The notes: generated from the letters alone by a model not told the origin. DNA of 64,000 nt from Bacilli bacterium (GCA_017501465.1 JAFVWY010000018.1:77829-141828); one strand, 5' to 3'; numbered from the stretch's first letter, positions 27,341 through 32,761 are shown. Translations and numbers: made by a program.

Positions 27341-27741
27341 TAATGAGACAAATATGTCCTGCCAACGAAGTTGGTTGTGCTCTACTAATAAAAAAAGCAA
27401 TCAAAAGGGTGTACGACGAATTCGACAAAACACGACATAATATATGCGTGTTTGGAAACGAATTATTTTTGTATGATTTTGTCTGGATGGGTTCGTGCAG
27501 CTACAAGATATTTAATTAGGGAGAATACTTTTATCTAGTATTGAACAAAAAGTATATCCGCCATTTAAAAAATGAAAAATAGAGAAGACCTTGAAAAAGG
27601 TCTTTTTTTTTGTTGAATAATACGTATTTCATATTTGAAAAGACCATAGAATTAATATAAAAAAATTAAAAAATAAAATATTAATCGTTTGTCCGCAACT
27701 ACTAGTTGCCAGGTGATGTAGTAATTGCTACTCCAAATGTA

Positions 27742-27770
27742 TAGACATTAAACACTAAAAATGATATAAT
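27742..27770 (+). promoter_or_regulatory. Promoter of the XRE/TPR regulator operon
   Basis: TAGACA at -35, a 17-nt spacer, then TGaTATAAT (extended -10). RBS GAGGTGA precedes the ATG at 27792. A 6-bp inverted repeat gcaact-act-agttgc at 27695-27709 lies about 35 nt upstream of the -35 and is a candidate operator. Confidence 0.6.
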
Positions 27771-27791
27771 TTATGAAAGTGAGGTGATTAT

Positions 27792-28862
27792 ATGTTAGGT
27801 GATAAGATATATAATTTACGAAAAATTAAAAAAATATCTCAAGAGGAATTCGCAGAATTATTAAACACATCAAGACAAGCTGTTAGTAAATGGGAAAGAA
27901 ATGAAGCTAAACCAGATATTGATAAACTAATATTGATTGCAAAAATTTTTAATATTTCCATAGATTATTTGTTAGATTATGAAGTTGAGAATTGTAAAGT
28001 AGAAGAATTTATTGATAGTTTAAATGAGTATTGTAAAAGTAGCAATTTTGTAATCAGTGCTAATGATATCAGATTGTGGTGTACTAAACATCCTAATAAT
28101 TTTAAATTACATGCAATAGCTGCTGAGTATTTAGGTATTGCATATATTGAAAATAATCAAAGAGAATATTTAGATTTATCGTTATCTTTGCTTAAAAGAG
28201 CGATTATTCTTCACACTCCCGAATATGATAATATTACAAGTTTAAATCAATTACATTATTACGTTGCACAAATTTATTTAATGCAACATAAATATGACCT
28301 TGCAAAAGAATATATTGAAACGAATAATGTTTTTGATTCAGAAGTGTTACTCGCCAAATGTAATCTGTCTTTAGGAAACTATGATACTGCTCTTAAAACT
28401 TCATCTGAAATTTATCTTAAATCTACATCTAATATAATTAATGTATCATTTATTCAAGTTACAGTATTATTGAAAACTAAATTAGTAAAAGAAGCTTATG
28501 AAATGATTAACTGGACTATTTCTTTTATCAATTCAGTTAAGAATGAAGGATCATTTTTCCAAGGGATATTATGTCCTTTCATATATTTAAAAGCAACTTG
28601 TGAAAGATTATTAAACATAAGTAGTATAGAGACTATTAATACTTTAAAAGAAGCGATCAATATTAACGTAGATTATAATGTAGTTTCAGGTGTCAAATCA
28701 ATTAAACATTATTTTGGTAATCCTGATGAAATTATATACACTGATTCCAATATTGAAAATATGTTTAAAGAAGTTATATATCAAGCTTCAAAAGAGGATA
28801 TATATTATAATGTACTAGTTGATATATATCAAGAACTTTTCGGAGGTAATTTAAATGATTAA
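27792..28862 (+). CDS. XRE-family HTH transcriptional regulator with a long C-terminal TPR-like helical domain (RRNPP / Rgg-PlcR-like architecture), 356 aa
   Basis: N-terminal HTH_3: 'ISQEEFAELLNTSRQAVSKWERNEAKPDIDKLILIAKIFNISIDYLLD'. The C-terminal ~290 aa are all-helical and repeat-like (LxxAxxYxxxxNY patterns), the size and architecture of peptide-binding quorum regulators. Its stop overlaps the next ATG by 8 nt. Confidence 0.65.
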   Translation: MLGDKIYNLRKIKKISQEEFAELLNTSRQAVSKWERNEAKPDIDKLILIAKIFNISIDYLLDYEVENCKVEEFIDSLNEYCKSSNFVISANDIRLWCTKHPNNFKLHAIAAEYLGIAYIENNQREYLDLSLSLLKRAIILHTPEYDNITSLNQLHYYVAQIYLMQHKYDLAKEYIETNNVFDSEVLLAKCNLSLGNYDTALKTSSEIYLKSTSNIINVSFIQVTVLLKTKLVKEAYEMINWTISFINSVKNEGSFFQGILCPFIYLKATCERLLNISSIETINTLKEAININVDYNVVSGVKSIKHYFGNPDEIIYTDSNIENMFKEVIYQASKEDIYYNVLVDIYQELFGGNLND

Positions 28863-30546: not shown

Positions 30547-30552
30547 AATAAT

Positions 30553-30589
30553 AATCTAATTTTTGATATTTCAAAAATTAGATTTTTTA
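30553..30589 (+). terminator. Strong rho-independent terminator after the ABC exporter
   Basis: aatctaattttt-gatatttc-aaaaattagatttttt: perfect 12-bp stem. Confidence 0.85.
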
Positions 30590-30664
30590 TTTTTTATAAA
30601 AATATTTTGTTAATTTGTCAGTTTATGTTATTATTAAACTGTAAATTAGAAGGAGGTGTGTATA

Positions 30665-32761
30665 TTGAAAAATAGTGAATATAATTTTTTTGAAGAAGTT
30701 CGAAAAACTCAAGAAAATCAAAACTATCAAGCTATACAATACTCGGCTGTTGAAAATGAATCTTATTTACAAAAAAATGAAACTTTATTGTCAGAAGAGT
30801 TTGGTCATACCAAAACTAAAACAAATAAAGTTAAAGAAAATAATGGTATCGTAAAGAAGTTAATTCAAAAAGTAACTGAAGCTACAAGCTCATTTATGGG
30901 AGGTATTGCCGCAACAGCAGTTGTAGCTGTTTCTTCTGTAATTTTGTTTACTAATATTCTAGTGAAAGAGCCTGTTGTTGAATTAATAGATATTATTGTA
31001 GGTCAAGACTATGTTACGTATAATTTATTATTAGATGATATTTCAGATAATATGGATTATTATACAATAATATCTAATGATTTTGAAAGTTATGAATATG
31101 AACTAGTTGAAGGTGAAAACCTCAATACAATTTCTAATTTAAAACTCAATACAGAATATAATTTATCTGTAATTGGAATTAATAATGATAATAAAGAAGA
31201 AATTAAATATTTTAATACAAAATTTAGTACAAAGTCTTATGAATATACCGCAACATTCAATCAATTATCACCTGATGAAGTGGTGATTGAATATGGTATT
31301 GATTCTAATATTTTAATCTTTAATACGAACTTTAATAATTATGGTGATGATAGTTTAAAATATAAAATTATTTTAAAAGATCCTGAAACAAGTGAAAAAT
31401 ATATATATGATGGTAATGAAGAAATAGCTGTAATTGATGTCCCATCGAATATAACAGTATTTAATATATCATATGAATTATATGGAATATATGATGGTGC
31501 CCAAAAAGTTTTTGAAACTATTAATGTTAATGATCCATTAGTTATAAGTATAATATCATCAGATATTACGGATTTAACATTAACAGATATCAATAAATAT
31601 CAATTATCATTACTAATAAATTCGGACTTTGTAGAAGAAGAAATATATAATTCAGTAAATTTATTAATTACTTATGATGATTTAACTACAAATAATATTG
31701 TGATTGAAGATATTTTAGTTAATGAAAAGATGAATTTTGAAGTATTAGTTCCTAGCTATTGTAAGTCATTTAATATTGACTATACAATTGATTTATTAGG
31801 AGCTAATGGTAATAATCCAAGAACGATAACTAGTAGTAAAGAATTTACTTTAGAAAATAGTTATGAATTAATAGAAATGCAAGTAGAAACTCAACAAGAT
31901 TACTCAATAACTAGATTTTTATTTAAATATCATTTTATTGATGAAAATACTACTTTAGCTGTTAAAAATGCTGCAACAGGTAATGTAGTAATGTTATATG
32001 AAGGAGAAGATAATATTCAAATTGAATTAAATGCTTCAACAAATGTTCAAGAATATACGTATTATTTATCAAATATTAATGGTGAAGCAATAGGTGAAGA
32101 AAATACTGTTTCATTTGAGATTCAAGATGTAAAAGGAGATTATAATTTCCAATATATTAATCCTGGAGACGCAATTGTTACATTTAATGATGATGATACA
32201 ATGAATATCTATTTAAATACAGTATTTGAAACAGAAGATAGTTCAATATATTATGTAGTTAGATATACTAATTATAATGATGGAACAGTTTATAATATTA
32301 AATATACTGAATCAGTAGCATATTTAGAAGATGTTCCATTTAGTAATTATGGAATAGAATATTTTGTATTCAAAACAGTAAATGGATTAGAATATCAATT
32401 ACAAAATATTGCGGTATCAGGCGGAATTGAAATAACATTAGATGGTGTATTACAAAGTACTTTAGAAACAGATGATTATGGTAATCCTTATGTCTTTATA
32501 ATGTATTATGATTATTATAATTTAAGTAATTTTGTTTTAATAGCAGATGACAAAAAGATACCAATACCATCTAGTAATATAGTATTTAACAATGGTTATT
32601 GTGAGATTGAGTATCAATTAGACTTTATCCCTAGTAAATTAGTTTTAGAATATGAAGCAATGTTTAATGATGAAATAACGTATGAATCTATTTCATCTGT
32701 TAGAGAAATTAAAGGGGAACAATATAGAAAAATGTACTTAGAAATTCCAATATTTCTTTAA
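30665..32761 (+). CDS. Single-pass membrane protein with a ~90-aa cytoplasmic N-terminus and a ~600-aa extracellular beta-rich repeat region. Function unknown.
   Basis: RBS AGGAGGTG is followed by TTG at 30665. The track GTG at 30656 abuts the RBS. TM 'GGIAATAVVAVSSVILFTNIL'. Ecto-region is Tyr/Asn/Ile-rich with recurring ~90-aa units (e.g. 'YNLLLDDISDNMDYYTIISNDFESYEYELVEGENLNTISNLKLNTEYNLSVIGIN'). Confidence 0.55.
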   Translation: MKNSEYNFFEEVRKTQENQNYQAIQYSAVENESYLQKNETLLSEEFGHTKTKTNKVKENNGIVKKLIQKVTEATSSFMGGIAATAVVAVSSVILFTNILVKEPVVELIDIIVGQDYVTYNLLLDDISDNMDYYTIISNDFESYEYELVEGENLNTISNLKLNTEYNLSVIGINNDNKEEIKYFNTKFSTKSYEYTATFNQLSPDEVVIEYGIDSNILIFNTNFNNYGDDSLKYKIILKDPETSEKYIYDGNEEIAVIDVPSNITVFNISYELYGIYDGAQKVFETINVNDPLVISIISSDITDLTLTDINKYQLSLLINSDFVEEEIYNSVNLLITYDDLTTNNIVIEDILVNEKMNFEVLVPSYCKSFNIDYTIDLLGANGNNPRTITSSKEFTLENSYELIEMQVETQQDYSITRFLFKYHFIDENTTLAVKNAATGNVVMLYEGEDNIQIELNASTNVQEYTYYLSNINGEAIGEENTVSFEIQDVKGDYNFQYINPGDAIVTFNDDDTMNIYLNTVFETEDSSIYYVVRYTNYNDGTVYNIKYTESVAYLEDVPFSNYGIEYFVFKTVNGLEYQLQNIAVSGGIEITLDGVLQSTLETDDYGNPYVFIMYYDYYNLSNFVLIADDKKIPIPSSNIVFNNGYCEIEYQLDFIPSKLVLEYEAMFNDEITYESISSVREIKGEQYRKMYLEIPIFL

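Follow-up and report, generated by a model that had tools for sequence, protein, structure and literature searches.

A 64,000-nucleotide stretch (hereafter the window) of the metagenome-assembled genome (MAG) labelled 'Bacilli bacterium' (GCA_017501465.1, JAFVWY010000018.1:77829-141828), with a G+C content of 24-33%, carries a gene for a regulator with an XRE-type helix-turn-helix (HTH) and a tetratricopeptide repeat (TPR)-like domain, followed directly by a gene for an ATP-binding cassette (ABC) exporter. The two products match MBR2892066.1 and MBR2892067.1 with 100% identity; public annotation calls these a 'helix-turn-helix transcriptional regulator' and an 'ABC transporter ATP-binding protein', and says nothing further. 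A first-pass annotation, made from the sequence alone, had read the two genes, together with a downstream gene for a surface protein of 701 amino acids (aa), as a peptide quorum-sensing-like cassette built around an RRNPP-like receptor. The open reading frames (ORFs) and features that it described are all present where it placed them (Table 1). The analyses presented here indicate that the pair is probably a self-regulated export module, and not a quorum-sensing cassette.

Table 1. Features of the regulator-exporter locus and of the gene that follows it, with positions counted from the first letter of the window
Feature	Position	Strand	Remarks
Predicted operator O1, perfect palindrome GCAAC-N5-GTTGC, GCAACTACTAGTTGC	27695-27709		Kept in 12/12 loci
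Putative operator O2, degenerate site, GCTACTCCAAATGTA	27727-27741		Exactly 32 bp downstream of O1; adjoins -35
Sigma-70-type promoter	27742-27770	+	-35 TAGACA 27742-27747; 17-nt spacer; extended -10 TGaTATAAT 27762-27770
Regulator, 356 aa, XRE/Cro-C1 HTH and TPR-like solenoid	27792-28862	+	MBR2892066.1; ribosome-binding site (RBS) GAGGTG 27781-27786
Translational-coupling junction	28842-28862	+	Shine-Dalgarno (SD) sequence GGAGG 28842-28846; exporter ATG 28855; regulator TAA 28860-28862
ABC half-transporter, transmembrane domain (TMD) then nucleotide-binding domain (NBD), 563 aa, ABCB1/MsbA-like	28855-30546	+	MBR2892067.1
Intrinsic terminator closing the two-gene operon	30553-30595	+	14-bp AT-rich stem, 4-nt loop, T run
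701-aa ORF, single-pass membrane protein, outside the conserved module	30656-32761	+	Likely start TTG 30665; promoter-like site 30607-30634

The regulator-exporter pair and its operator

The exporter was identified by its two domains, ABC_membrane (PF00664, E 1e-31) and ABC_tran (PF00005, E 2.5e-28), in the TMD-NBD order given by the first-pass annotation. Its Walker A (GASGSGKTT), signature (LSGGEKQR) and Walker B (LLLLDEATSALD) motifs are intact, and the closest solved structures in the PDB are ABCB1 and MsbA. With a six-helix TMD and a complete NBD it has the make-up of an ABCB-like type I half-transporter, which presumably works as a homodimer. In this it resembles the homodimeric ABCB exporters LmrA, BmrA, Sav1866 and MsbA, which share the TMD-NBD arrangement, the length of about 570 aa and the three intact motifs; it differs from them in that it falls below every curated NCBIfam cut-off and is not an equivalog of any named exporter. 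It also differs from the peptide-cleaving bacteriocin and pheromone exporters (TIGR01193, ComA/NHLM type), since it has no N-terminal C39 peptidase domain: the alignments to TIGR01193 and TIGR03796 begin at model position about 155-160, and the protein starts directly with the TMD. We take it not to be PptAB-like.

The regulator and exporter genes overlap by 8 nucleotides (nt; ATGATTAA), in line with the overlap of stop and start already noted in the first-pass annotation, and the exporter SD lies within the last codons of the regulator, which encode the C-terminal residues FGG. The terminator that it had described as strong after the exporter is a perfect 14-bp stem of -16.1 kcal/mol (z = -7.0), and none of 200 shuffled sequences folds as well; a consensus scan, which is GC-biased, missed it because the stem is AT-rich.

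Homologues of the regulator are numerous. A word-indexed search found 471, all about 350 aa long and almost all metagenomic, and an exhaustive profile search gave 247 clusters at 50% identity. For comparison of gene order we defined a core set of 12 independent loci, consisting of the window and eleven others (loci other than the window carry L numbers below), whose regulators are 32-86% identical to that of the window. The first-pass annotation had suggested looking for the pair in relatives: the regulator is immediately followed by an exporter in all 12. The other neighbours vary by locus, and include beta-lactamase-fold genes, DUF711, tRNAs, toxin-antitoxin genes, glycosidases and TrkAH. 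As judged from these comparisons, the conserved unit is two genes, the regulator and the exporter.

The exporter is not of one type. Six of the loci have an ABC half-transporter and the other six have, at the same junction, a major facilitator superfamily (MFS) protein of 435-440 aa, as at L005 7049-8362. This protein fits the TIGR00900 model of DHA3 'H+ antiporters' and, less strongly, those of Mef macrolide efflux and of EntS. In the regulator tree, sequences coupled to ABC exporters and those coupled to MFS exporters form two cleanly separate clades. With both kinds of partner the junction is the same: nine of the 12 loci have the 8-nt overlap ATGAnTRA and three have a gap of 1-4 nt, and the SD always lies inside conserved C-terminal codons of the regulator, encoding FGG or FGE. 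An ABC half-transporter also follows much more distant relatives of the sensor domain: P0197, which is encoded at L100 and scores E 3e-23 against the C-terminal profile, and a clade from the human gut (L101-L116) that shares about 40% identity with P0197 and in which the L103 gap is 1 nt. Because the pairing is kept in such distant clades, the functional link between the sensor domain and export appears to be old and robust.

The strict translational coupling gives production of both proteins at one site, and TPR domains are protein-interaction modules. Both features suit a scheme in which the TPR domain contacts the co-translated exporter and is released or sequestered by transport activity, so that the regulator senses flux or occupancy, as in the analogous MalK-MalT and BceAB-BceS. 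We consider this very unlikely, because ABC and MFS proteins both occur as partners and have no common fold or termini, which makes a conserved docking surface improbable.

The two genes, and the two parts of the regulator, evolve at different rates. Identity among the exporters is 67-97% (ABC) and 62-76% (MFS), against 32-86% among the regulators; of the two parts of the regulator, the HTH has 61-87% identity and the sensor domain 25-85%. The ratio of nonsynonymous to synonymous substitution rates (dN/dS) is highest in the sensor (0.21-0.44), with 0.11-0.12 in the ABC gene and 0.06-0.11 in the HTH. These values show that the sensor is under relaxed or diversifying pressure, with no overall positive selection; they fit a pherotype-like drift of ligand specificity and, equally, a weakly constrained solenoid. 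In a separate comparison of the window (27792-33855) with L001, its closest relative, synonymous divergence falls steeply from 1.26 in the HTH to 0.34 in the sensor domain, 0.12 in the ABC gene and 0.04 in MscS, a pattern suggesting that a recombination breakpoint lies within the regulator gene or a short way before it; the HTH value comes from only 65 codons and is noisy.

The palindrome gcaact-act-agttgc that the first-pass annotation had pointed to upstream of the promoter is O1. Within the window it is the single match at up to one mismatch, where chance alone would give 0.5 matches and at least one match occurs in 42 of 100 shuffles. Its significance therefore comes not from the window but from its conservation in all 12 loci: all ten specified bases are kept in nine of them and nine of the ten in the other three, and it is always centred 86-96 nt ahead of the regulator ATG, amid sequence that has otherwise diverged. 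Phylogenetic footprinting thus predicts O1 to be a genuine conserved operator. A regulon search at the same threshold found no O1-like site elsewhere in the 64-kb window. The second site, O2, has a fixed position about three helical turns downstream. Its left half (GCAAC, GCTAC or GAAAC) is kept behind an A tract in most of the 12 loci and is clearly degenerate in L092, and its right half is variable or degenerate. The core promoter (TAGACA, 17 nt, TGnTATAAT) has 11 of 12 consensus matches as well as the TG extension, and comparable promoters are found in L001, L002, L005 and L094.

The operator is not confined to this family. We retrieved 79 unrelated XRE loci (L010-L089) solely by the HTH peptides RQA[VI]SKWE and F[NG][VI]SIDYLL, and the same palindrome occurs upstream of the XRE gene in 33 of them, against a background of 9 sites in 681 kb. 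The site is centred 85-111 nt before the HTH in 26 of the 33 and 126-153 nt before it in the other seven. The hosts include Lachnospiraceae, Oscillospiraceae, Streptococcus, Treponema and others, comprising many Firmicutes and a few other phyla, and the genes concerned differ in their C-terminal domains and in the genes that follow them (such as DUF4097, Mn catalase and flavin reductase). Since the same HTH and operator occur with unrelated C-terminal domains and neighbours, they would constitute a portable autoregulatory module, apparently widespread, onto which various sensor domains have been grafted. The regulator studied here, with an HTH_3 domain and a palindrome in its own promoter, has the features of an XRE autoregulator.

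We note two further observations on such sites. Many of the generic XRE loci have a conserved TGGTGG or TGGTAG motif about 32 bp downstream of the palindrome. In the MFS-coupled locus L008, a second XRE gene (4796-5565, 224 aa) lies directly upstream of the regulator and has its own perfect GCAAC-N5-GTTGC; the two regulators probably recognize the same type of operator and might regulate each other's genes.

The mode of action of this type of HTH has been studied in Streptococcus suis, where the XRE protein XtrSs binds TAAACATGCTGTTGA in electrophoretic mobility shift assays and where the promoter activity of its target rises in an xtrSs deletion mutant, consistent with repression (PMC10841013). 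XtrSs has the same HTH type as the regulator, with the recognition helix RQAxSKWE, and the same operator core, AAC-N5-GTT. It belongs to the short XRE proteins of about 90-130 aa, which differ from the regulator in having no TPR sensor and in controlling different neighbouring genes. By analogy, the shared core provides a lead toward repression, short of proof. One of the retrieved XRE loci, L083, is from S. suis and carries GCAACTACCAGTTGC at -94; its identity with XtrSs is not established.

The sensor domain and the search for a propeptide gene

The regulator consists of an HTH (residues 1-65), a TPR-like helical solenoid (70-290) and a small C-terminal cap. Pfam identifies the HTH as HTH_3 (residues 6-60, E 7.5e-17), and gives a marginal ANAPC3/TPR match to residues 143-203, at 27.9 bits against a cut-off of 27.2, which recurs in 28 of 41 members of the family. 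AlphaFold2 predicts the full-length protein to be all-helical (pLDDT 89.4); this model and that of residues 66-356 alone (pLDDT 91.5) are both confident, and they have about eleven helices arranged as five to six hairpins, one helix of 32 residues, and the small cap at the C terminus. These results agree with the N-terminal XRE HTH and helical TPR-like C-terminal domain of the first-pass annotation, and support a TPR domain, if weakly; the absence of such a fold, which it had named as evidence against its own proposal, was not what we found. The length of the regulator (356 aa; homologues 346-376 aa) lies within the 250-500 aa range of RRNPP receptors.

The first-pass annotation had further assigned the protein to the architecture of Rgg, PlcR, NprR and PrgX, and had suggested comparing residues 70-356 with the TPR domains of these receptors. 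In Foldseek searches the full-length model has PlcR (3u3w, E 2e-5), ComR, Rgg2 and PrgX as best matches, with TM-scores of only about 0.2. The C-terminal model (66-356) alone matches designed consensus TPRs and the TPR domains of AspH, kinesin light chain (KLC) and OGT, with E values of about 1e-3 and TM-scores of 0.25-0.38, and none of its top 50 matches is an RRNPP receptor. In these models it therefore takes the HTH to bring RRNPP receptors to the head of the fold search. Profile searches against PDB, Pfam and NCBIfam, which included distant members of the family, gave HTH and generic TPR signals only, and the PDB matches were to the HTH only. The likeness of the sensor to RRNPP receptors is thus one of architecture, without demonstrable homology of the sensor itself; the assignment stands for the whole protein and for a TPR-like fold, and not for anything specific to RRNPP in the TPR domain.

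Conserved polar and aromatic residues in the solenoid (N102, N103, Y113, Y162, Y174, N178, N217, Q222 and W241) suggest a binding surface. They bear on the alternative that the C-terminal helices are an oligomerization scaffold with no ligand, and that the regulator is a plain autorepressor which holds a housekeeping exporter, such as a lipid or metabolite flippase, at a constant low level. The weak constraint on the C-terminal domain (dN/dS 0.21-0.44) is what a scaffold would show, the HTH and operator are common to many XRE proteins with unrelated C-terminal domains, and the exporter shows the high conservation expected of a housekeeping protein. However, the invariant polar and aromatic residues persist down to 25% identity, and the sensor domain is tied across deep clades to exporters of two unrelated classes, which argues for a function linked to export. 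We therefore regard a plain autorepressor as unlikely.

RRNPP systems are defined by a gene for a secreted propeptide of 10-100 aa directly adjacent to a TPR receptor of 250-500 aa (PMC10075063). The first-pass annotation had found no cognate peptide gene, and had suggested a search for ORFs of 15-50 aa with an RBS around the pair. In both flanks of each of the 12 loci we looked for ORFs of 8-80 aa, filtered for the presence of an RBS. No conserved ORF of this kind was found in these flanks, and four loci had no candidate at all; in particular, there was no propeptide candidate near the pair with a secretion signal or of SHP type. The position downstream of the regulator is held by the overlapping exporter, and some flanks are too short to hold a propeptide gene: the shortest are 48-53 nt after the exporter (L005, L098) and 141-148 nt before the operator (L096, L007). 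Since no conserved small ORF is adjacent to the pair, the adjacency that defines RRNPP systems is absent here.

Three small ORFs were considered individually and rejected. In the window, ORFs of 16 aa (27610-27660) and 8 aa (27725-27751) owe their apparent RBS to spurious matches inside a terminator or the operator. In L100, from a 3.3-Mb genome, the 183-nt gap between regulator and exporter contains a basic, hydrophilic ORF of 38 aa (5174-5290, MKMRKKTKKHTNPAMVSKKRFEKCDHFMSFEDILRITR); as a propeptide for the whole family it fails, being hydrophilic and confined to one locus, with no gene call and no counterpart in L103.

These results bear directly on the proposal that the pair is a true RRNPP quorum-sensing system, whose propeptide would be encoded elsewhere or by a tiny or overlapping ORF, secreted by the exporter, re-imported by Opp and bound by the TPR domain, giving positive autoregulation. 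Much about the regulator suits it: the HTH with five TPR-like hairpins and the size of 356 aa, the lead of PlcR, ComR, Rgg2 and PrgX in the full-length fold search, and the arrangement of a strong distal site and a weak site close to -35, which resembles PrgX. The sensor diverges fast while the HTH and operator are conserved, as pherotypes would; Opp ATPases are present in the genome, including the Opp importer genes noted by the first-pass annotation in this same window, where we confirmed an OppD-like ATPase (ABC_tran and oligo_HPY) at 872-2035, about 25 kb from the regulator; and one distant relative has the 38-aa ORF of L100. The start of the window falls within the opp-like operon (216-3118), in which ORFs at 216-863 and 2039-3118 flank this ATPase. 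Against the proposal are the want of any conserved RBS-bearing small ORF in the core loci, some with flanks that are too short, and the properties of the L100 ORF described above. The exporter has no C39 peptidase domain and is taken not to be PptAB-like; in half of the family it is replaced by a DHA3 drug/H+ antiporter; and the TPR domain alone has no similarity specific to RRNPP receptors, profile matches in the PDB being confined to the HTH. A quorum-sensing system in this sense is distinctly unlikely. The cell-cell signalling cassette of the first-pass annotation is accordingly not upheld, given exporters that are of efflux type and interchangeable, no peptide gene, and a TPR domain that is not RRNPP-specific. 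That annotation had also named, as evidence against itself, a pair that always lacks a peptide gene and whose regulator matches a known drug-efflux regulator family; the pair is indeed without a peptide gene in all the loci, while the regulator belongs to no known family of efflux regulators.

Neighbouring genes in the window

The gene downstream of the exporter is better started at the TTG, 9 nt after AGGAGG (30650-30655), which gives a protein of 698 aa that matches, at 100% identity, the hypothetical protein P0121 from this MAG. As the first-pass annotation stated, the product is a single-pass membrane protein, and its gene is apparently transcribed separately: it has one transmembrane segment (residues 77-100 of the 701-aa form), and a terminator, a promoter-like site of its own and an RBS separate it from the exporter gene. 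The repeats it attributed to the ectodomain were not confirmed at the sequence level, since a BLAST comparison of the 698-aa protein with itself found no internal repeats. The ectodomain is acidic, about 600 aa long and rich in Tyr, Asn and Ile. The protein has no match in Pfam or NCBIfam, and only 17 homologues.

One could regard regulator, exporter and surface protein as a single signalling or effector cassette, as the first-pass annotation did, since the three genes lie side by side in one orientation, both in the window and in the 86%-identical L001. These are the only loci in which the surface protein follows the pair: it is absent from L002, L090, L092 and L094, that is from four of the six ABC-coupled loci, and from all those that are MFS-coupled. 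Furthermore, the strong terminator, the separate promoter and the RBS intervene, there is no O1-like site upstream of the surface-protein gene, and the genome is rich in other large, fast-evolving surface proteins. A three-gene cassette is thus exceedingly improbable, and the surface protein is, on these comparisons, an unrelated, lineage-specific neighbour.

Upstream of the regulator, an ORF at 26830-27273 encodes a GyrI-like/Cass2 domain and corresponds to the C-terminal 147 residues (94.6% identical) of an AraC-HTH and GyrI-like regulator, which is intact in L001 and L002 (277 aa). Because the AraC DNA-binding half is missing, the gene in the window appears to be truncated or a pseudogene. 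Between it and O1 are about 300 nt of non-coding, relatively GC-richer sequence (27300-27610), closed by a terminator of its own (27581-27608). This region has no Rfam match and no credible ORF, and its blastn matches in the fetched loci (L001, L094) are weak and limited to the first ~170 nt and a stretch of 104 nt; it may be a remnant or a novel small RNA. Rfam gave no match anywhere in the window, and none in 27250-27800 even at permissive thresholds.

Cell-surface proteins take up an unusually large share of the window. Five consecutive giant ORFs lie at 3347-24466: a 2499-aa S8 subtilase with PA, Fn3 and BspA-type leucine-rich repeat domains, then proteins of 779, 951 and 1146 aa with Ig-like domains, and one of 1645 aa with Flg_new repeats. 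A separate protein of 1254 aa with Flg_new, Big_2 and amidase domains is encoded further on (36151-39915). Finally, a single ORF of 832 aa at 45914-48412 comprises a GdpP-like cyclic di-AMP phosphodiesterase (PAS-GGDEF-DHH-DHHA1) and a complete ribosomal protein L9, whose N and C domains are at residues 685-830; gdpP and rplI, which are usually adjacent genes, appear here to be fused, or the intervening stop codon is absent.

Proposed mechanism and relation to known systems

We propose that the regulator and exporter genes form a self-contained, autoregulated and ligand-gated export operon with an RRNPP-like sensor architecture, a reading that we consider fairly probable. The regulator, presumably a dimer, would bind O1 through its XRE-type HTH, and this dimer would recruit a second one, probably cooperatively, to the weak O2 site next to -35. 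The bound state most probably represses, giving autorepression; this is the likeliest mode because the core promoter is near consensus and already strong. A cytoplasmic ligand bound in the TPR-like groove would alter oligomerization or DNA affinity and so lift repression. Regulator and exporter would then be made together by translational coupling, since the SD and ATG of the exporter lie inside the last codons of the regulator, and the exporter would pump the inducer out, lowering its concentration until repression is restored. The ligand could be a peptide (for example antimicrobial or imported) or a small hydrophobic or organic-acid xenobiotic; both are plausible, because pockets of the RRNPPA type accept non-peptide ligands, as with ComR and hydroxyphenylacetic acid (bioRxiv 10.1101/2025.10.09.681396).

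Several points weigh against this proposal. The sensor evolves much faster than the exporter, which is not what a simple model with the same substrate for sensor and pump predicts. The order of the genes, with the regulator first and coupled to the pump, gives a stoichiometry that is unusual for efflux operons. The positions of O2 near -42 and of O1 near -74 from the predicted start site are also classic activator positions, and the regulator may activate from them in the manner of PlcR, ComR or Rgg2, which are examples of activation. The in silico results establish the gene pair and its coupling, the conservation of the operator, the exchange of exporters, the lack of an adjacent peptide gene and the TPR-like fold; repression as opposed to activation, gating by a ligand, and the nature of that ligand and of the pump substrate are inferred.

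The module can be compared with two groups of known systems. It resembles the five-TPR receptors of the RRNPPA family (PlcR, TprA, ComR, Rgg, PrgX/TraA), which have an XRE HTH with about five TPR-like hairpins in 280-360 aa, which provide the best full-length structural matches to the regulator, and which bind a palindrome beside or across the -35 of a neighbouring operon; the layout with two sites recalls PrgX. It differs from them in having no adjacent propeptide gene, in a profile similarity limited to the HTH, in a TPR domain that taken alone is no closer to theirs than to generic TPRs, and in the operon shared with an efflux-type exporter. The second group comprises operons in which a local regulator controls an efflux pump, such as TetR/TetA, QacR/QacA, BmrR/Bmr and LmrR/LmrCD. 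Here the likeness lies in a dedicated regulator beside a multidrug-type ABC or MFS exporter, in an operator in the pump promoter, and in pump classes that are interchangeable under one regulator family; the differences are the XRE-HTH/TPR solenoid in place of a TetR, MerR, PadR or MarR fold, and a regulator gene that comes first in the operon and is coupled in translation to the pump gene. The module belongs to neither group, as it has no adjacent propeptide gene and its regulator does not have the fold of any known efflux-regulator family. Our searches of the literature on XRE/TPR regulators of efflux pumps, on RRNPP receptors with MFS or efflux proteins and on HTH-TPR proteins with transporters gave no description of this regulator-exporter family.

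A further idea, which we think rather unlikely, is that the family is a previously unrecognised, exporter-coupled branch of cytoplasmic HTH-TPR sensors related to RRNPPA receptors. According to the structural phylogeny of RRNPPA proteins, the root of that family is open, and remote structural homologues could be an outgroup (PMC12700828). In one version, the branch could be an outgroup that has kept a pre-quorum-sensing state, sensing an intracellular peptide or xenobiotic and expelling it. In another, the module could serve communication: a signal produced elsewhere would leave through the dedicated ABC or MFS pump, and the sensor would diversify rapidly in a pherotype-like manner.

The ligand-gated export operon that we propose joins a sensor resembling a pheromone receptor to multidrug-type pumps of two classes, in a module that occurs commonly among uncultured Bacilli of the gut and rumen and among related Firmicutes. 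Its operator, promoter and junction are mapped precisely, and the association of this HTH type with GCAAC-N5-GTTGC before many XRE genes provides a reusable lead for regulon prediction. The module bears on how gut commensals sense and expel peptides and xenobiotics, on what 'orphan' RRNPP-like receptors detect, and on the origin of peptide quorum sensing; the significance would be larger still if the family proved to stand outside the RRNPPA receptors as their outgroup, or to be a branch of them that lacks the peptide.

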